From positions 304-64,303 of the forward strand of contig JAJXYT010000001.1 in the NCBI GenBank assembly GCA_021780375.1: a stretch of DNA of 64,000 nt. Direction: 5' to 3'. The DNA is from a bacterium (lineage in GTDB: Bacteria; Verrucomicrobiota; Verrucomicrobiia; Limisphaerales; UBA11358). A program made the translations under genes and the position numbers. Below, in pieces: positions 11,237-21,793 of the stretch (positions within the stretch are counted from its first letter, which is position 1; each line of letters opens with the position of its first letter). Under the pieces are notes generated by a model. It had not been told where the DNA came from and searched no databases. It saw only the letters and a list, made by a program, of their open reading frames with translations.

Positions 11237-11258
11237 CAAGTAACTTGATGGTTACTTG
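11237..11258 (+). promoter_or_regulatory. Candidate TetR operator: perfect inverted repeat CAAGTAAC-N6-GTTACTTG
   Basis: Perfect 8-bp arms read directly. The repeat ends 10 nt before the ATG (11268) of the TetR gene that heads the efflux operon. Confidence 0.55.
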
Positions 11259-11267
11259 GCAGGCTTG

Positions 11268-11918
11268 ATGGCCAGACCCGCCAGAACCTCAGGCGTCTCG
11301 TTGCGGAACCCGGAACGCACGCGCGAGCGCATTTTATCCGCCGCGCTGAAGGAGTTCGCCGCGAACGGTTTTGCCGGGGCACGGGTGGATGCCATCGCGC
11401 AGCGCGCGGCCGTCAACAAACGGATGCTTTACCATTACTTCGGCAACAAGGAACATCTGTTTCGGGAAGTGCTGCGTCTGAAAATGGCCGAGCGGCAGGC
11501 GTGGGCCGAAACGTTGTCGGGCGATCCGGCGGAAAGTCTTGCCTTCTGGTTCGACGCCGCGTGCCGGGACCCGGATTGGGTTCGTCTGCTGGAGTGGGAA
11601 GCGTTGCAGGAAGCCAACCGGCGGTTGATTGACGAAAAAAAACGGCGCGCCGCAACAAACCGCGGACTGGAGCGCATCCGGCAGCGGCAGACCCGCGGCC
11701 AGGTTTCGGCTGAATTCGATCCGCGCCACGTCATGCTGGCCATGCGGTCGCTGACCATGTTTCCGGCGGCGTTCCCCCAATTGACCCGGCTCATCATGGG
11801 GCGACCCGTTTCCGACCCCATGTTTCAGAAGGATCGTACCGCGTTTTTGAAAAGATTCGCGGCCGCCTTTCAACCGCCCCCGGCGCGGAGCTCCGCCAAG
11901 AACGATCTGGCAAAGTAA
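11268..11918 (+). CDS. TetR/AcrR family transcriptional regulator
   Basis: N-terminal TetR HTH (RERILSAALKEFAANGFAGARVDAIAQRAAVNKRMLYHYF). It sits directly upstream of the RND adaptor and pump genes. Confidence 0.85.
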   Translation: MARPARTSGVSLRNPERTRERILSAALKEFAANGFAGARVDAIAQRAAVNKRMLYHYFGNKEHLFREVLRLKMAERQAWAETLSGDPAESLAFWFDAACRDPDWVRLLEWEALQEANRRLIDEKKRRAATNRGLERIRQRQTRGQVSAEFDPRHVMLAMRSLTMFPAAFPQLTRLIMGRPVSDPMFQKDRTAFLKRFAAAFQPPPARSSAKNDLAK

Positions 11919-11924
11919 AGCAGC

Positions 11925-13028
11925 ATGAAAAAATCCTCTTTTATTTCCGGAATATTGGCGGTGACCGCCGGGCTGCTGGCGGGCGGCTGTTCCCGCAGCG
12001 CGAAACCCGCCGCGGGCGGCGCAGCGCCGGTGCTGGTCGCCGCCGCCTTCACCACCAATGTGCCCATGCAGATTGATCCGCCGCCGGTCGGCCATGTGAT
12101 GCCGTACTCGACCGTGACGATTCACTCGCAAATCGGCGGCATCATCAGCCAGGTGCATTTCAAGGAAGGCCAGCAGGTCAGCCAGGGCGATTTGCTGTTC
12201 ACGATTGATCCGCGGCCGTCGCAGGCGGCACTGGCCCAGGCCCAGGCAAATCTGTTGCGCGACCGGGCGCAACTGGAAAATGCCAGGATCCAGTTTGATC
12301 GCGAGCGGAAATTATTCGACCAGAAACTTGTCTCCCAGGATGAATTTGACACCAGCAAGGCCGGCATGGACGCGCTTCAGGGCACCGTCCAGGCGGATCA
12401 AGCCGCAGTCACCAATGCCGGCCTCAACCTCGAGTTCACCGAAATCCGGTCGCCCATAGACGGAATCACCGGCAGCCTGCTGTTCTACCAGGGCAATGTC
12501 GTCAAGGCCCCGGACGACACGTTGCTGACGATCAACCAAATCCGTCCGATCTATGTCGGGTTTGCCGTGCCGGAACAGTATCTGCCGGAAATCAGAAGTG
12601 AAATGAAGCAAAGAAAGCTCAAGGTCCAGGCCGCGTTTGAGGGCATGAATGTGCCGCCGCCGCAGGGTGAATTGACCTTCATCAACAACACGGTGGATGA
12701 AACCACCGGATCGATCCTGCTTAAGGCGACCTTTCCGAACGAGCAAGGCGTGCTGTGGCCGGGACAGTTTGTGAACGTTGAGTTGACATTGTCGGAACTG
12801 ACGAACGCGGTCGTCGTACCGTCACCGGCCATCCAGACCGGGCAAAACGGGGAGTACGTTTACGTCGTAAAACCGGATCAAACCGTGGCTGAACGTCCCG
12901 TGACCATCGGCATCACCTATCAGGATGAGACGGTCGTGCAAACAGGCCTGGTCGCGGGTGAAACGGTGGTGACCGACGGGCAATTGCGGCTGACGCCCGG
13001 CGCGAAGGTCAGTGTCAAACAACCCTGA
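11925..13028 (+). CDS. RND efflux periplasmic adaptor (membrane fusion protein)
   Basis: Lipoprotein-type signal (LLAGGCS) and HlyD/MFP lipoyl and beta-barrel sequence features. It is adjacent to an RND permease. Confidence 0.85.
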   Translation: MKKSSFISGILAVTAGLLAGGCSRSAKPAAGGAAPVLVAAAFTTNVPMQIDPPPVGHVMPYSTVTIHSQIGGIISQVHFKEGQQVSQGDLLFTIDPRPSQAALAQAQANLLRDRAQLENARIQFDRERKLFDQKLVSQDEFDTSKAGMDALQGTVQADQAAVTNAGLNLEFTEIRSPIDGITGSLLFYQGNVVKAPDDTLLTINQIRPIYVGFAVPEQYLPEIRSEMKQRKLKVQAAFEGMNVPPPQGELTFINNTVDETTGSILLKATFPNEQGVLWPGQFVNVELTLSELTNAVVVPSPAIQTGQNGEYVYVVKPDQTVAERPVTIGITYQDETVVQTGLVAGETVVTDGQLRLTPGAKVSVKQP

Positions 13029-13083
13029 TGAAGCAAAACCACCATGACGCGGGGCGACCGGGCGGTTGTTTCGTTGATCGGCC

Positions 13084-16000
13084 ATGAGCATTCCCGAACT
13101 GTTCATCCGCCGGCCGGTAATGACCACGTTGGTCATGCTGGCCATCCTGTTGTTCGGCATCATTGGTTACAGCCTGTTACCGGTCAGCGACCTGCCGGAC
13201 GTGGATTATCCCACCATCAACGTTTCGGCGAGCCTGCCCGGCGCGAGTCCTGACACCATGGCCTCGGCCGTGGCCACGCCGCTGGAAAAACAATTCTCCA
13301 CCATTGCGGGCGTGGATTCCATGAGTTCGGTCAGCGCGCTGGGCGCTTCGCAAATCACCATTCAATTTTCGCTGGACCGCAATATTGATGCGGCAGCACA
13401 GGACGTGCAGGCGGCCATCGCCAAGGCGGCCCGGCAGTTGCCGCCGAACATGCCCACCCCGCCGACGTACAGCAAAGTCAATCCGGCCGACGCGCCGATT
13501 CTTTATCTCGCGATGTCGTCGCCGACCCTGCCGCTCTCCGTCGTGGACAATTACGCCGAAAATTTGCTGGCGGAACAGATTTCCATGGTGGACGGCGTGG
13601 CGCAGGTTTCCGTCTATGGCTCACAACAATACGCCGTGCGCATCCAGGTGGACCCGAACAAGCTGGCGGCCTATGGCCTGGGCATTGACCAGGTCGAACA
13701 GGCGGTGGAACAAGGCAACGTGGATCAGCCGACGGGCATCCTTTACGGCAAACACCAGGCCTTCACCGTGGAGGCCAACGGCCAACTGGAGGACGCGGCG
13801 GCTTTTCGCCCGCTGATTGTCGCCTGGCGCAACGGCAATCCGGTGCGGCTGGAGCAGTTGGGCAACGTGCTCGACAGCGTGCAAAACAACAAGGTGGCAG
13901 CGTGGTACAACACGCCGAAAGGAAGCACCCGCGCCGTGGTGCTGGCCATTCAGCGCCAGCCCGGAGCGAACACCGTTGCCGTGGTGGACAACATCAAGAA
14001 ATTGCTGCCGCAGTTCCGCACCCAGATTCCCGCTGCCGTTCAGCTCAATGTGCTTTTTGACCGTTCCCAATCCATCCGCGAATCGGTAGCGGAGGTCGAG
14101 CACACCCTGTTTTTGGCCGTCTGCCTTGTCATCATGGTCATATTCATTTTTCTGCGGAACCTCTCGGCGACACTCATTCCCAGCCTGGCCTTGCCGATGT
14201 CCATCATCGGCACGTTTGCCGTGATGGCCCTGCTCGGTTACAGCCTCGACAATCTGTCGCTCATGTCACTGACACTCTGCGTCGGATTCGTGGTCGATGA
14301 CGCCATTGTCATGCTCGAGAACATTGTGCGTCACATGGAAAACGGCGAATCCCCGATGGCAGCGGCGCTGAAGGGTTCCCGGGAAATCGGCTTCACCATT
14401 GTTTCGATGACGCTGTCGCTCACGGCGGTGTTCATCCCGGTGCTGTTCATGAGCGGCCTGGTCGGGCGACTGCTGCACGAATTTGCCGTGACCATTGTCA
14501 CCGCCGTGTTGGTGTCCGGTTTTGTTTCGCTGACGCTGACGCCGATGATGTGCAGCCGGTTTGTGCACGCGGAGCGTGGGCGCCAGCACGGCCGGGTTTA
14601 CAATGCCTTCGAACGGTATTTTAACGGGATGCGCGACACCTACGACCGCACGCTCAAAGTGGTCCTGCGCCACCGCCGCACGACCTTGATCGTCTCGCTG
14701 GTGATCTTTGTCGTCACCTTGTTCTTATTTGTCGTCATTCCCAAGGGCTTTTTTCCCAGTGAAGACACCGGCCAGATTTTTGCGATTACCGAGGCGTCGC
14801 AGGACATATCCTTTGACGCCATGCGGCAACATCAAATGGCCGCGGCGAAAATCGTGGCAGCGGACCCGAACGTGGCCGCGTTCATGTCCGCCATTGGCGC
14901 CGGCGGACCGTCCTCCACCTTGAATCAGGGCCGCATGTTCATGCGCTTGAAACCGCGTTCCGAACGCAAACTGAGCGCGGATCAGATCATTCAGGAATTG
15001 CGTCCGAAGCTGGCGCAGGTGACAGGCATTAATGTTTACCCGCAAAACCTGCCGCTCATTCGGGTCGGCGGCCGGCTGACCAAGGCGTTGTATCAATACA
15101 GTTTGCAGGACTCCGACACCAAGGAACTCTTCCACTGGGCGCCGATTTTGACTGACCGGATGGCCAAACTGCCCGGTCTGCAGGACGTGACCAGCGATTT
15201 GCAGATCGCCAGCCCGCAGGTGAACGTGGACATCGATCGTGACAAAGCGGCCGCGCTGGGTGTGACCGCGCAGCAGGTCGAAAACGCTTTGAATTATGCC
15301 TACGGGGAAATGCAGGCCTCGACCATCTACTCCGATGTGGCCGAATACTGGGTGGTCTTTGAAGTCCTGCCGCAATTTCAACTTGAACCCGCCGCGCTGG
15401 CGCGGCTCTACATCACCAGTTCGATGACGAGCACCAATGGGACGCCGAATCTCGTTCCTTTGAGCGCCGTCGCCCGGCTTTCCCGGAGCCTGGGTCCGGC
15501 GACCATTGCACATATCGGCCAGTTGCCGGCGGTCACCATTTCGTTCAACCTCGCTCCCGGTGTGGCCCTCGGCACAGCGGTATCGGAAATTCAAGAAATG
15601 GAGGCGCAAACGCACCTCCCGGCCACCGTCACCGGCAGTTTTCAGGGCGCGGCACAGGTTTACCAATCTTCTCTGCAGGGCCTCTTCGCTTTGCTCATCA
15701 TGTCCATTCTCGTCATTTACATCATTCTGGGCATTCTTTACGAAAGCTTTATTCATCCGCTGACGATTTTGTCCGGCCTCCCCTCGGCAGGATTTGGGGC
15801 GTTGATGACACTGATTATTTTCAGTTGGTGCAACACGAACACCCTTCACGAATTGGCGCATCCCCAAAATCTTAAAGCATTTTTCGAGACATTGGTCTCG
15901 CACGCCGAACTGAACATATACGGATTTGTGGGGTTGATCATGCTCATTGGCATAGTAAAAAAGAACGCCATCCTGATGATTGACTTTGCCATCGTCGCGC

Positions 16001-16311
16001 AACGCGAGCATGGCAAGGACCCCTATGACGCCATTTACGAAGGCTGCCTGTTGCGGTTCCGGCCCATCATGATGACCACCATGGCCGCGCTGATGGCCAC
16101 ATTACCCATCGCGCTGGGCCTCGGCGCGGGCGGTTCCTCGCGGCAGACGCTTGGCCTGGCGGTTGTCGGCGGCTTGCTGGTTTCCCAGCTTCTTACGCTT
16201 TATATCACACCGGTGATTTATCTCTACCTGGAATCGGCCCACCAATGGTATTTGCGCAAGCACGCCAGACGCGCCGCGATTCAGACGGGAACGAATCCGG
16301 CGGCGGCGTGA
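13084..16311 (+). CDS. RND multidrug efflux permease (AcrB/MdtB/MdtC-like)
   Basis: 1075 aa with a 12-TM architecture. Conserved blocks include VVDDAIVMLENI and KKNAILMIDFA. Confidence 0.92.
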   Translation: MSIPELFIRRPVMTTLVMLAILLFGIIGYSLLPVSDLPDVDYPTINVSASLPGASPDTMASAVATPLEKQFSTIAGVDSMSSVSALGASQITIQFSLDRNIDAAAQDVQAAIAKAARQLPPNMPTPPTYSKVNPADAPILYLAMSSPTLPLSVVDNYAENLLAEQISMVDGVAQVSVYGSQQYAVRIQVDPNKLAAYGLGIDQVEQAVEQGNVDQPTGILYGKHQAFTVEANGQLEDAAAFRPLIVAWRNGNPVRLEQLGNVLDSVQNNKVAAWYNTPKGSTRAVVLAIQRQPGANTVAVVDNIKKLLPQFRTQIPAAVQLNVLFDRSQSIRESVAEVEHTLFLAVCLVIMVIFIFLRNLSATLIPSLALPMSIIGTFAVMALLGYSLDNLSLMSLTLCVGFVVDDAIVMLENIVRHMENGESPMAAALKGSREIGFTIVSMTLSLTAVFIPVLFMSGLVGRLLHEFAVTIVTAVLVSGFVSLTLTPMMCSRFVHAERGRQHGRVYNAFERYFNGMRDTYDRTLKVVLRHRRTTLIVSLVIFVVTLFLFVVIPKGFFPSEDTGQIFAITEASQDISFDAMRQHQMAAAKIVAADPNVAAFMSAIGAGGPSSTLNQGRMFMRLKPRSERKLSADQIIQELRPKLAQVTGINVYPQNLPLIRVGGRLTKALYQYSLQDSDTKELFHWAPILTDRMAKLPGLQDVTSDLQIASPQVNVDIDRDKAAALGVTAQQVENALNYAYGEMQASTIYSDVAEYWVVFEVLPQFQLEPAALARLYITSSMTSTNGTPNLVPLSAVARLSRSLGPATIAHIGQLPAVTISFNLAPGVALGTAVSEIQEMEAQTHLPATVTGSFQGAAQVYQSSLQGLFALLIMSILVIYIILGILYESFIHPLTILSGLPSAGFGALMTLIIFSWCNTNTLHELAHPQNLKAFFETLVSHAELNIYGFVGLIMLIGIVKKNAILMIDFAIVAQREHGKDPYDAIYEGCLLRFRPIMMTTMAALMATLPIALGLGAGGSSRQTLGLAVVGGLLVSQLLTLYITPVIYLYLESAHQWYLRKHARRAAIQTGTNPAAA

Positions 16312-16344: not shown

Positions 16345-18795
16345 TTACCAGGGCCGTTCGACGCGGAAAAACCCGCTCCCCGACGCAGGCAAAGTGACAC
16401 TCAGCAGGCTGGAGTTGGTATCGAGAGCATTGGTGACCCACAACCATTGCGCGGGTGAAGCAAGCGCATCGTTCTTCCTCAGCAAGGTGTCAATGATGGT
16501 ATTGGGCCACGAAACGGTGATGGAGTCGCCGGCACGGGCAATATTCAACTGTACCGGATTACCGGCCACAATCAGGCCGGCATCCACCGAGCTGTTTCCC
16601 GACACGGTGGCAATCACGGTCCAAAGGTAAGTGCCCGGAAGCTGGTAGGTGTGGGTGGCGAACTGGTTTGTCCCATGCGGCGTATTGTCGCCGAAGTTCC
16701 AATCGTAGGTCACCGGCGCGGCGTTGTTGGAAACGGCGGGCACGGCCGCAAACGGAGCCGGCCAATTTGCCGGATAGGACGGCGGGACGTATCCGATGGC
16801 GCTTATGGAATATGGCCCTTGCGCCACGGACACGATACCGGTGCCAAGGTTCGAATTTTTGTTGCCGTCATAGGCCGCAAACATAAACGTGTCCGTCCCC
16901 ACGTAACCTGGATTCGGGAAATAGGTCGCCACATTGTTGCTCAACCCCACGGAACCGTTGGTCGCCTGGGAGAGGATCCGCAGGGTGAGGTTGCTGCCGG
17001 TCGCCGGCAATATCATGGCCACGGCCCTGTTATTGGTGGTGTTGGTGGAAACATTGCTCACGGCGGGTGGAACGCTGTTGTTGGGGTTGCTGTTGCCGGG
17101 TCCGTTGTGACAGAGGTAACAGCCAATTTCCGCCCCGCGGTAGAGATTGACCGTGTTCGTAACCGTGTCAAAACTGGCTATCAACGTGCGATCCGCCTGG
17201 GCGCGGGACAGGACGGTTCCCCGATAATCCGTTCCGTGGCAGATGGCACAGGCCGTCACCCCGCCCGGCAGCGAGTTGATCAAATCCCCGTGCGAGCCGA
17301 TCCAATTCTGGCCCAGCATGTGCATTCCGTGCGGCCCGCCGTTGGCGGTATTGGGCATGCTCACATGGCAGGCGGTGCATTCAATCATCATACCGACATG
17401 GCCCTGAATCTGGATGTTCCGCAAATTATCGTTGAGGTGCGTGCTGGGAAACTCCGCATGCGTCGAGCCATGGCACGCCTCGCATTGCAAACCGCCATGG
17501 CCGACGGAAAACCGGTACAACGCAAGATTATTGATGGCGAAAGTCTGGTCCACCGCAGTCCGAACGGTCCAGTTGGTATCGGTGAAGACGGAGGTGTAGC
17601 GGATTTGCCCGTTGTTATTGACGGCGGTGCCGGAGTGGCAGCTCTGGCACAGCGGTTCGTCCAGCCAGCCGGTGCGATTGGTCGAGCCAACCAGGCTCAT
17701 GTTGCCGTGGCAACTCTGGCATTGCATTTCCATGGAACCATCCGCTGCAATGGCCCCGCCCATCGCGCCGCGCAGGCATCTCGTCGTGGAACCGGGATGA
17801 CAGCGGTAACAGGCGGAACGGTTGGCGAGATTATCGAGGGTGGTATTGGACGTTGGATCCACCACATGCGCGTGGAATCCGTGCATGGAAGCTGTGAATG
17901 GAGGGATGTTGCTGTAACTGTTCAGAATATTCAGCGCCACGTCGGCATGACAAGCCGCGCACAGAACCGGTTTCCCATCGGCGGTCACGTTACGGTAGAG
18001 GCCTTGTGGATTGAAACCTCGGGCGGCCAGGGCGGCCTGGTAAAGTCCGGGAGACTGCGAGAACTGCCGCTCGTCGTGCAACCGAAGAATGTTCAGCCGG
18101 AAATCGCGTTCCGGCAAACCGTCCCAGACCCAGCCGGCCAGCGGCTCGGCGGCCGTTTGCGTGCCCGAAGCATGACAGGCGCGGCAATCCATTTCATCGG
18201 AGATGGGCAGGACAATCTGGTTCGTCGCGAGGATGTTGTTCCCGGCATCACGCGCCACGAGCAACATGAGCGGATAAGGATTTTTCTTGAGGGCATCGTC
18301 GTAAGGTGAAAGCGGAATTCCCTCGGCGCGCCACCAGTTGACCGGCGTGGTGACGCCGGGAAGCGGTGGAACGGGTGTGTTGGTTTGCTCGAAGAGCATT
18401 CCTTGCGGCGTGTTGTTGAGGCCGGGCATGCCCCAGTTGAGTAATCCCGCGTTCACCGGCAAATTGGCGCCGTACAACGGAAAGACAAAGCTGTAAAAAT
18501 TGCCTTTGCCCGCAGACGTGGAATTGAACGAGCCGGTGGGATCGGCCACCGCCTGGTACGTCACGGTGTAACCGCCGTTCGTAACCAGCAGTCCGCCGAC
18601 GATGAGCTGAGCCTCAATGGTGTTGTAGGGCGGCAGGATGGAGAACACCGAGTAATCGCTGTCTATGCAATGCATGCCGAGATTGTTCCAGCCAAGAACC
18701 TGGGCATTGGCCCCGCAACTCGTGTGGGGGAAAAGAAAAGTCAAAGCGAACAAACAAACCGCCAAACGCAAACGCCATGGTCGCCACGCTTTCAT
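16345..18795 (-). CDS. Secreted nonaheme c-type cytochrome with C-terminal Ig-like, PKD and FYR-tail domains
   Basis: Signal peptide and nine CxxCH motifs (CRACH, CAACH, CYRCH, CQSCH x2, CEACH, CTACH, CAICH, CYLCH). A PKD-type block is present (YDWNFGDNTPHGTNQFATHTYQLPGTY). The protein ends GFFRVERPW. Confidence 0.85.
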   Translation of the reverse strand: MKAWRPWRLRLAVCLFALTFLFPHTSCGANAQVLGWNNLGMHCIDSDYSVFSILPPYNTIEAQLIVGGLLVTNGGYTVTYQAVADPTGSFNSTSAGKGNFYSFVFPLYGANLPVNAGLLNWGMPGLNNTPQGMLFEQTNTPVPPLPGVTTPVNWWRAEGIPLSPYDDALKKNPYPLMLLVARDAGNNILATNQIVLPISDEMDCRACHASGTQTAAEPLAGWVWDGLPERDFRLNILRLHDERQFSQSPGLYQAALAARGFNPQGLYRNVTADGKPVLCAACHADVALNILNSYSNIPPFTASMHGFHAHVVDPTSNTTLDNLANRSACYRCHPGSTTRCLRGAMGGAIAADGSMEMQCQSCHGNMSLVGSTNRTGWLDEPLCQSCHSGTAVNNNGQIRYTSVFTDTNWTVRTAVDQTFAINNLALYRFSVGHGGLQCEACHGSTHAEFPSTHLNDNLRNIQIQGHVGMMIECTACHVSMPNTANGGPHGMHMLGQNWIGSHGDLINSLPGGVTACAICHGTDYRGTVLSRAQADRTLIASFDTVTNTVNLYRGAEIGCYLCHNGPGNSNPNNSVPPAVSNVSTNTTNNRAVAMILPATGSNLTLRILSQATNGSVGLSNNVATYFPNPGYVGTDTFMFAAYDGNKNSNLGTGIVSVAQGPYSISAIGYVPPSYPANWPAPFAAVPAVSNNAAPVTYDWNFGDNTPHGTNQFATHTYQLPGTYLWTVIATVSGNSSVDAGLIVAGNPVQLNIARAGDSITVSWPNTIIDTLLRKNDALASPAQWLWVTNALDTNSSLLSVTLPASGSGFFRVERPW

Positions 18796-18982
18796 GGATT
18801 GTCCTGTCAGAACCGCTTCTTATCCTAACACAGATTTTAAGTCTGACAATCCACCAATCTGGGGAATTTTATGCCAAAAAATGCTGCGGTTCGGAACAGA
18901 GGAACCCCTGCCAATGGCTGATTTCAACCCTTGCCGTGCATCACGCCGTCCGCTGTGCTGGCTTCGCCGTTTCCCCAATGGT

Positions 18983-21166: not shown

Positions 21167-21598
21167 TTAATCCAGATTCAAATACTTCAATACTTCCGGC
21201 GGCGGGCCGCCGAATTTGGCCAGCGCCACGTTGCCGAGATATTGAATGTCCTTCCAGCCCTGCGGCGTCGTGTAAAACCCGCCGGCTGTCAGGTTTCGGA
21301 ATTTGGCAAAAAACCAGGCAGCGGTTTTAAATCCGGGTTTCGCTCTGGGCACAAAACAAATATCATCGCAGATATCGTGCTTTTGCTTGTCGTTCAAATC
21401 GGCAAACACCCTGGCAAAGCGTTTTTCAGATTCTTTTTCCAACCAGGCCAGTCCATTCAGGATTTCCTCCCGGTCGGCCCGTTGGCCGGGGTACGGCGCG
21501 CTGATCCCTTCGTCAATGAAATCCGGCACGCCCAGACTGCTGACACTGGGCGACTTGTCATCAGCGGGTAGGGACGCCGCGCTGCGGCGTCCGGTCAT
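21167..21598 (-). CDS. Gluconate 2-dehydrogenase subunit 3-family protein (orphan small subunit)
   Basis: Tat-like N-terminus (MTGRRSAA) and a C-terminal block GGFYTTPQGWKDIQYLGN typical of this family. The longer track ORF runs through a repeat. Confidence 0.55.
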   Translation of the reverse strand: MTGRRSAASLPADDKSPSVSSLGVPDFIDEGISAPYPGQRADREEILNGLAWLEKESEKRFARVFADLNDKQKHDICDDICFVPRAKPGFKTAAWFFAKFRNLTAGGFYTTPQGWKDIQYLGNVALAKFGGPPPEVLKYLNLD

Positions 21599-21763
21599 CG
21601 CGGCGCGATGACCCTGCCACGCCGGGTTTCTTTGCCATAAATTGAGATCAGGAAATGCGCGTCCGCTCGTCAATGAGTCCGCAAACTTCATACCGTGGTT
21701 CAAAGGGAGGATAGGCGGAGCAAAGTCGCTGGAGTGGCTCTGGGAGCGGACAAACGGCCAAAA

Positions 21764-21793
21764 ATCCGTGTTCATCCGTGTCCATCCGTGGTA
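21764..21793 (+). repeat. 30-nt ATCCGTG decamer block (copy upstream of gatB)
   Basis: atccgtgttcatccgtgtccatccgtggta ends 16 nt before the gatB ATG. Confidence 0.75.

Follow-up and report, generated by a model that had tools for sequence, protein, structure and literature searches.

The 64,000-nucleotide stretch of DNA analysed here (positions 304 to 64,303 of contig JAJXYT010000001.1, assembly GCA_021780375.1, from a bacterium of the Limisphaerales in the phylum Verrucomicrobiota; hereafter, the window) carries on its minus strand, at positions 16345..18795, an intact open reading frame (ORF) with an ATG start and a stop codon at 16345-16347, the product of which is a predicted secreted nonahaem c-type cytochrome of 816 amino acids. 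This cytochrome is one of thousands of close relatives and no oddity of its genome, and we put the probability that it is a cell-surface electron-transfer protein at roughly 0.55. The protein would be exported through the Sec pathway and would acquire nine c-type haems in the periplasm. Its core would consist of a nine-haem chain and a beta-sandwich N-terminal domain (N-domain) joined to it through a C43-C340 disulfide. Haems 4-8 of the chain would make up a pentahaem module with homology to domain II/IV of MtrC/MtrF, and ligation would be bis-His for most of the haems and probably His/Met for one (M345). A Big_9-PKD stalk and a Verrucomicrobia-type tail would hold or display this core at or beyond the outer membrane, where the cytochrome, supplied by a conduit whose genes lie in another part of the genome, would act as an electron-transfer wire or terminal oxidoreductase and exchange electrons with partners outside the cell, such as minerals containing Fe(III) or Mn(IV), organic matter (humic or particulate), or metals in solution. 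The analysis shows that the gene is intact and establishes its motifs and domain matches, the size and conservation of the family, the covariation of two cysteines, and the lack of conserved neighbours; we infer from these the surface location, how the haems are ligated, the disulfide, and where electrons flow and between which partners.

The cytochrome has nine CxxCH motifs, no more and no fewer, which start at residues 204, 279, 329, 359, 383, 438, 473, 516, and 559 and together span residues 204-563, compared with a chance expectation of ~0.01 C..CH motifs for a protein of such size. No CX3-4CH or CxxCK variant haem motifs were found in it. In ~410 aligned homologues, from which the conservation figures given here were derived, each of the nine motifs and their spacing was intact in >98% of sequences. 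The N-terminus (MKAWRPWRLRLAVCLFALTFLF...GANA|Q) reads by eye as a Sec-type signal with an AxA site; the signal peptide spans residues 1-31 (18703..18795, minus strand), with predicted cleavage after GANA, and is the sole hydrophobic segment of the 816 residues. We judged the signal to be without a lipobox because no cysteine is conserved across this region among the close homologues.

We considered which residues could provide the distal haem ligands. Ten conserved candidates lie outside the motifs (H240, H305, H308, M345, H433, H446, H466, H489, H492, and H502), and at two of these positions the ligand is swapped among homologues, with H308 replaced by methionine in four sequences and M345 by histidine in five. 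Since His/Met exchange is typical of axial haem ligands, positions 308 and 345 are likely axial ligands. The protein probably carries eight bis-His haems and one His/Met haem (M345), the latter probably being haem 3, since M345 sits in an invariant C-L-R-G-A-M segment directly after that haem. Because no open catalytic haem is evident from the sequence, a wire or terminal oxidoreductase would be expected rather than a small-molecule enzyme.

The mature cytochrome has 20 cysteines, comprising 18 in the motifs together with C43 in the N-domain (codon at 18667..18669, minus strand) and C340 in the invariant C-L-R-G-A-M segment (codon at 17776..17778, minus strand). Both are present in 365 homologues and both are missing from 11, while the single discordant sequence is a fragment; the losses are scattered over several unrelated subfamilies. 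Because the only two non-motif cysteines are kept or lost together, we infer that they form an inter-domain disulfide that staples the N-domain to the haem-3 region, and such a bond would fit an oxidising, extracytoplasmic compartment. Histidine 42 was also considered as an essential haem ligand contributed by the N-domain and was rejected, since it is lost with C43 in the 11 sequences while the nine motifs persist. In one Limisphaerales metagenome-assembled genome (MAG), the nonahaem gene occurs in two tandem copies (L024:5355-7757 and L024:7917-10454), of which the upstream, more divergent copy lacks both C43 and C340.

Profile searches placed part of this core. The N-domain (~residues 32-198, 18202..18702, minus strand; GWNNLGMHCIDSDYSVF...) matched no family in Pfam or NCBIfam. 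Within the nine-haem region (residues 199-570, 17086..18201, minus strand), residues 357-523, which hold haems 4-8 (17227..17727, minus strand), matched the MtrC/MtrF domain II/IV family PF22113 (E = 2e-12; 47.4 bits versus a cut-off of 30; profile positions 7-166 of 176), and this match recurred in the same register and above the cut-off in eight of nine relatives from other phyla. Sequence and profile searches of the PDB returned PKD domains and marginal cytochrome matches, with no MtrC-family chain at E <= 1. In conservation the N-domain equals the haem part (mean top-residue frequency 0.63 versus 0.60-0.66), and it contains the invariant polar residues N37, D45, N58, D85, S89, K97, and D166. 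Because its conservation equals that of the haem domains and includes invariant polar residues, the N-domain appears to be functional rather than a spacer.

A first AlphaFold model, built with 24 close homologues, was unusable in the haem region (predicted local distance difference test score, pLDDT, <50 for residues 197-534) and was replaced by a second model of residues 25-575 built from 106 diverse sequences. The second model was confident (pLDDT 86.2; predicted template modelling score 0.87) and consisted of a beta-sandwich, with pLDDT mostly 92-98 over the N-domain, and then a haem domain made up largely of irregular segments and short helices, in which no long helix bundle occurs at the C-terminus. 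When the core model was compared with the PDB using Foldseek, nothing was returned at E <= 0.001; the matches were generic beta-sandwiches such as p53 and Fab, and no MtrC-family chain was among the best 50 of 1,287 matches at E <= 10. This null is a weak negative because folds rich in haem are poor in secondary structure. For the core as a whole, the PDB offered no relative by either sequence or fold.

The haem region is followed by a Big_9 bacterial Ig-like domain (Pfam PF17963; residues 576-652, 16840..17070, minus strand) and a PKD domain (PF00801 and PF18911; residues 674-732, 16600..16776, minus strand). The Big_9 match scored 25.0 bits versus a cut-off of 23.6, relatives reach 45-56 bits at the same position, and pLDDT over this domain was 72-89 in a full-length model. 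The PKD domain scored 33.7 bits versus 23.5 for PF00801 and 33.6 versus 27 for PF18911, and the region also matches collagenase PKD structures in the PDB. The last ~70 residues form a C-terminal module ending in GFFRVERPW (16348..16563, minus strand) that aligns with the tails of four other proteins of the window, all of which end in G.x(L/V)xW...W...[FY][FY]R[LIV]. The other bearers of this [FY][FY]R tail are a GH53 and a GH28 enzyme, both endo-enzymes acting on polymers, an Ig-domain protein, and a protein without a family match. These results bear out the preliminary description of the gene, which had read in the sequence nine CxxCH motifs over ~360 residues behind a signal peptide, and an N-terminal domain succeeded by Ig-like and PKD blocks and a tail shared with secreted glycosidases; it had also named loss of conserved CxxCH spacing among homologues as grounds for abandoning its reading, and that spacing proved to be retained.

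A word-indexed search retrieved 5,442 proteins, the best 120 of which are all ~800-846 residues long, 62-96% identical to the window cytochrome and, where named at all, called only "PKD domain-containing" or "Ig-like domain-containing". One homologue, also of 816 residues, is 96% identical. At 90% identity the family falls into >5,400 protein clusters. Among 1.8 billion representatives searched exhaustively, 7,741 matched, 614 of them at E <= 1e-30. Residues ~28-567, that is, the N-domain and the nine haems, recur as a single unit that is 40-60% identical between phyla and bears variable N- and C-terminal additions. When one genome per species was scanned, carriers, which include bacteria of soil, peat, and mine water, numbered at least 553 species and came from seven or more phyla, including Verrucomicrobiota, Acidobacteriota, Geobacterales, Planctomycetota, and Binatia as well as Gammaproteobacteria, Myxococcota, Kiritimatiellota, and Lentisphaerota; Geomonas diazotrophica Red69 (Geobacterales) is a cultured carrier.

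In most phyla examined, Big_9 directly follows the core, and the modules beyond it vary with lineage. Verrucomicrobiota have PKD and the [FY][FY]R tail, an Acidobacteriota member has three PKD domains, Geobacterales-type members have an Ig domain and three to nine IPT/TIG domains, and a Myxococcales member has BACON. Other relatives carry lipoprotein signals with Gly-rich linkers or N-terminal Ig arrays, and cadherin-like modules also occur; a gammaproteobacterial lipoprotein subfamily is equally large, and core-only relatives of 541-656 residues exist. A surface or extracellular location is plausible because the tail is common to the polymer-acting GH53 and GH28 enzymes, the distal display modules are swapped in other phyla, and other relatives are lipoproteins.

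A tree of 53 core sequences grouped largely by phylum (9 label changes versus a minimum of 8) and placed the window cytochrome with subdivision-3/Limisphaerales sequences. Geobacterales were nested within a Verrucomicrobiota clade with 100% support, and the spread of Verrucomicrobiota over several clades indicates paralogy and some transfer. Full-length copies that are 58-65% identical were also found on contigs titled "uncultured Bifidobacterium / Bifidobacteriaceae" (L014, L023, and L037), "Candidatus Acidoferrum" (L004), "Formivibrio" (L008), and "Dongiaceae" (L010). These six look like mis-binned or mislabelled MAG contigs rather than a true extension of the range; L004, the sole such contig in the tree, groups with Verrucomicrobiota.

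We next compared the cytochrome with systems of known function. Like MtrC, OmcA, MtrF, and UndA of Shewanella, it appears to be an exported multihaem c-type cytochrome in which a beta-domain precedes a haem domain, and it would share with them a conserved disulfide tied to the beta-domain, a feature described in Shewanella (PMC6703420) and suggested here by covariation. However, the Shewanella proteins have ten or eleven haems rather than nine, and their layout of beta-domain I, pentahaem II, beta-domain III, and pentahaem IV contrasts with one beta-domain of unassigned type here and one PF22113 module with three haems before it and one after. They carry a lipoprotein signal in place of the Sec signal, although some distant relatives of the window cytochrome have lipoboxes, and Big_9, PKD, and the tail are extra in the window protein. 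Genes of the mtrA/mtrB type, which neighbour the Shewanella genes, were found neither in the window nor in 80 related loci, and the NCBIfam OmcA/MtrC decahaem model gave no match at E <= 1. One 900-residue relative (P0223) is a tandem duplication of the N-domain and haem block, in each half of which five identically spaced CxxCH motifs are accompanied by motifs of the CX4CH type (CVSSGCH, CGAASCH / CGATQCH), an arrangement that echoes the I-II/III-IV layout of MtrC.

OcwA of Thermincola potens (PMC6703420) offers a second comparison. It likewise has nine c-type haems and a beta-sheet domain; its role as a surface terminal reductase has been shown and is the one proposed here, and its Met-ligated haem in mixed ligation has a probable counterpart at M345. 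In contrast, OcwA belongs to the NrfA/c554/MccA structural group; its C-terminus forms a three-helix bundle and two of its haems are five-coordinate (PMC6703420), whereas the model of the window core lacks this bundle and its Pfam match is MtrC-type. Neither the PDB searches nor Foldseek matched the core to OcwA or NrfA-family structures, no NrfA, HAO, OTR, or MccA family matched above its curated cut-off in Pfam or NCBIfam, and the NCBIfam matches were limited to sub-threshold ones to the NrfB pentahaem subunit (E ~0.01-0.04). Taken together, these comparisons suggest that the window cytochrome is related to MtrC and may work like MtrC or OcwA while being a member of neither family.

The preliminary description had regarded the lineage as one not noted for extracellular electron transfer, a view that the accessible portions of three reports make outdated. 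A 2017 study proposed porin-multihaem clusters for freshwater Verrucomicrobia (He et al., PMC5615132); cultured Limisphaera were described in 2026 as reducing ferrihydrite by dissimilatory iron reduction, with one multihaem cytochrome locus adjoining an MdtB-type resistance-nodulation-division (RND) pump (PMC13608581); and Limisphaerales and Acidobacteriota of peat were reported to express porin-cytochrome clusters (EET1-4; bioRxiv 10.64898/2026.05.27.727921). The systems in these portions of text share with our family the same phyla and the same proposed purpose, namely to let uncultured heterotrophs of soil and peat carry out extracellular electron transfer, but they are defined by synteny of a porin with periplasmic and outer cytochromes, whereas the gene studied here is solitary in each of 80 loci. 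A protein combining the N-domain, nine haems, and Big_9/PKD is not described in the accessible text of PMC5615132, PMC13608581, or 10.64898/2026.05.27.727921, and that of the peat preprint makes no mention of PKD or Ig-like domains. Since the lineage is now tied to extracellular electron transfer, a surface cytochrome in it is less surprising and a conduit encoded elsewhere in the genome more plausible.

The genes around the cytochrome resemble inherited context. Neighbours within ~7 kb encode GatA, TetR, an RND adaptor, an MdtB/C-type RND pump, GNAT, a beta-lactamase-fold protein, a Gluconate_2-dh3-like protein, GatB, and MoaA. The GNAT, beta-lactamase-fold, and orphan Gluconate_2-dh3-like genes lie upstream on the same strand, with gatB and moaA beyond, and the convergent operon of TetR, adaptor, and MdtB/C-type pump (11256-16311, plus strand) ends 33 bp from the cytochrome stop codon, which recalls the MdtB-type pump beside a multihaem locus of Limisphaera (PMC13608581). 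A sigma-70-like promoter match (TTGTCA-16-TAGGAT with TG; 18822..18849, minus strand; a consensus match only) ends 27 nt upstream of the cytochrome ATG, and an AGGA ribosome-binding site lies at -10. Since a 187-bp gap separates the upstream GNAT gene, the cytochrome gene probably has its own transcript. On a 4.6-Mb contig, a 70%-identical relative retains the order gatB / beta-lactamase / cytochrome / RND / TetR / gatA, and because this order is kept we regard the neighbourhood as housekeeping synteny rather than a redox module. The Gluconate_2-dh3-like small-subunit gene (21167-21775, minus strand), which lies 2.4 kb upstream and has no flavoprotein or cytochrome partner, was rejected as a redox partner since it is not retained in the syntenic relative L001; its closeness is probably coincidental.

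Consistent with the preliminary description, which had called the gene stand-alone and without adjacent maturation, quinol oxidoreductase, or partner redox genes, we found no cytochrome maturation, quinol-oxidoreductase, porin, or periplasmic decahaem gene adjacent to it, and among 46 large ORFs tabulated over the window none but the cytochrome contains CxxCH. This solitude extends to the family. When all ORFs of 83 loci were clustered and Pfam families were tallied for 111 nearest neighbours, no conserved partner gene emerged over 80 loci from seven or more phyla, and no second multihaem cytochrome recurred in them. RND pumps occur in 14 loci and are MdtB/C-type here, CusA/CzcA-type in two, and unassigned in others; the pump was rejected as a functional partner in the window since types are mixed and the association is mostly shared synteny. 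About 2 kb downstream of the homologue in Geomonas diazotrophica Red69, a 407-residue ORF (L031:13087-14310) has seven CxxCH motifs (CITCH, CSSCH, CKECH, CGGCH, CNSCH, CRTCH, and CQTCH) and may encode a small hydroxylamine-oxidoreductase-like cytochrome.

Among the genes directly beside the cytochrome, one alone recurs, an ArsR/SmtB-type regulator, which is divergently adjacent in five sister Verrucomicrobia loci and carries a conserved C-terminal C-x3-C without the classical CVC arsenite site. The palindrome ATATGAATATATATTCATAT, likely an operator, is conserved in the intergenic region of four of these five loci (L009:7873-7967, L011:7806-7937, L016:7870-8003, and L034:7788-7925), where the regulator lies 96-139 bp from the cytochrome gene. 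The window has no ArsR gene, and the palindrome is missing upstream of its cytochrome gene. In two further loci, from Terriglobia (L060:2774-11255) and Verrucomicrobiota (L028:1121-10427), the cytochrome gene lies just downstream of and on the same strand as CusB/CusA-type pump genes; the CusB-like adaptor there has a CPMHP-type metal-binding N-terminus, the pump is CusA/CzcA-type, and the gap to the pump gene in L060 is ~20 bp. The ArsR and CusB/CusA contexts are a lead to metal- or redox-regulated expression that does not apply to the window copy. The cytochrome sequence itself is nearly complete in mine-drainage and mine-tailings metagenomes and partial in soil metagenomes.

Surface display is favoured because a conserved core is combined with lineage-specific display modules, a shared tail, an MtrC-type module, and a structural disulfide. 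Several points nevertheless weigh against a surface electron-transfer role. No porin, periplasmic decahaem, or quinol dehydrogenase gene adjoins the cytochrome gene in the window or in 80 related loci; the sorting or anchoring role of the [FY][FY]R tail is putative and unproven; and many carriers, in Chthoniobacteraceae, Rhodanobacteraceae, and Steroidobacteraceae, are aerobic or facultative soil heterotrophs, a poor fit to mineral respiration. Three metatranscriptomes from the same mine-drainage study yielded no matching contigs, although these runs are small and hence uninformative. Moreover, the conservation of the N-domain and its invariant Asp, Asn, and Lys residues would also fit a substrate-binding or catalytic role, and counting histidines may leave room for open-site haems, as in OcwA, whose histidines suffice for nine bis-His haems and which has Met-ligated and five-coordinate haems all the same (PMC6703420).

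Some of these points would suit a periplasmic protein that carries or stores electrons between inner-membrane dehydrogenases or oxidases and periplasmic redox enzymes, with the Ig, PKD, and tail modules serving as spacers or envelope attachments. A Sec signal without a lipobox, the unproven role of the tail, the lack of a secretion-system or porin gene nearby, and the existence of core-only forms would all be expected of such a carrier. We nonetheless think it unlikely, given that arrays of Big_9, PKD, IPT/TIG, BACON, and cadherin-like domains characterise surface proteins and vary between lineages like display modules, that polymer-degrading GH53 and GH28 enzymes share the tail, and that the nearest recognisable module, PF22113, comes from outer-surface cytochromes. 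The regulatory contexts described above point in another direction, to a sensor-induced stress protein that changes the redox state of toxic species (for example Cu, Cr, U, As, or Fe(II)) outside the cytoplasm; its mechanism would overlap with that of the surface electron-transfer protein, but its purpose would be detoxification rather than respiration. The divergent ArsR/SmtB-type regulators with their palindrome, the position of the gene directly after heavy-metal pumps in L060 and L028, and its presence in mine-drainage and mine-tailings metagenomes are consistent with this role. However, the association with ArsR occurs in a single clade (~6 of 80 loci), where common descent may explain it, the regulators carry C-x3-C in place of the classical CVC arsenite site, and the window copy has neither regulator nor palindrome and faces a convergent MdtB/C-type pump with a TetR regulator, so that we rate detoxification as distinctly improbable here.

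A multihaem enzyme, in which the N-domain and one haem would form a catalytic site for nitrogen or sulfur oxyanions or peroxide as in NrfA, HAO, OTR, MccA, or OcwA, would account for the conservation of the N-domain, for the invariant residues N37, D45, N58, D85, K97, D166, and E201, and for a core identity between phyla that is high for a simple wire; OcwA, a surface nonahaem protein, provides a precedent for open-site haems despite sufficient histidines (PMC6703420). Yet all motifs in the window protein are CxxCH, the ten conserved His/Met candidates suffice to six-coordinate every haem, the model contains no C-terminal three-helix bundle, and neither a family match above cut-off nor a structural match by sequence or fold was obtained, which together make an enzyme of this kind very unlikely. 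That secreted glycosidases have the same tail, and that the genome encodes many pectin and galactan hydrolases, also brings to mind an extracellular electron donor for oxidative polysaccharide breakdown of the lytic polysaccharide monooxygenase type, comparable to the cytochrome domains of fungal cellobiose dehydrogenases, and the carrier lineages are mostly polysaccharide-degrading soil heterotrophs. We give this proposal scant credence, since an oxidative carbohydrate-active enzyme is linked in none of the 80 loci, the family also occurs in Geobacterales and Binatia, and nine haems exceed the need.

A broader proposal builds on the surface electron-transfer role and is speculative, and we would not expect it to hold in full. 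The family may represent a porin-independent, single-gene class of surface redox proteins, a sister branch to MtrC, whose N-domain, a new beta-sandwich stapled to the nine-haem chain by a redox-sensitive disulfide, would bind an external partner such as a mineral, a humic quinone, a flavin, or a metal ion. Such proteins might be the main electron outlet or inlet of the abundant and mostly uncultured Verrucomicrobiota and Acidobacteriota of soil, peat, and mine waters, turned on by a dedicated ArsR-type sensor in some lineages.

Verrucomicrobiota and Acidobacteriota are among the most abundant bacteria of soil and peat, and culture-based and metatranscriptomic links between them and iron reduction or extracellular electron transfer came only in 2026. 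The nonahaem family itself is very large, cross-phylum, strongly conserved, and unnamed, with no entry of its own in Pfam, NCBIfam, or the PDB, and because its genes are solitary and the family is absent from these databases, synteny-based surveys of electron-transfer machinery will miss it. If the window cytochrome and its relatives are surface redox proteins, they would provide a simple, single-gene target for the study of electron exchange with minerals, organic matter, and metals, with cultured carriers at hand and, in the predicted inter-domain disulfide and His/Met haem, concrete and mutable features.

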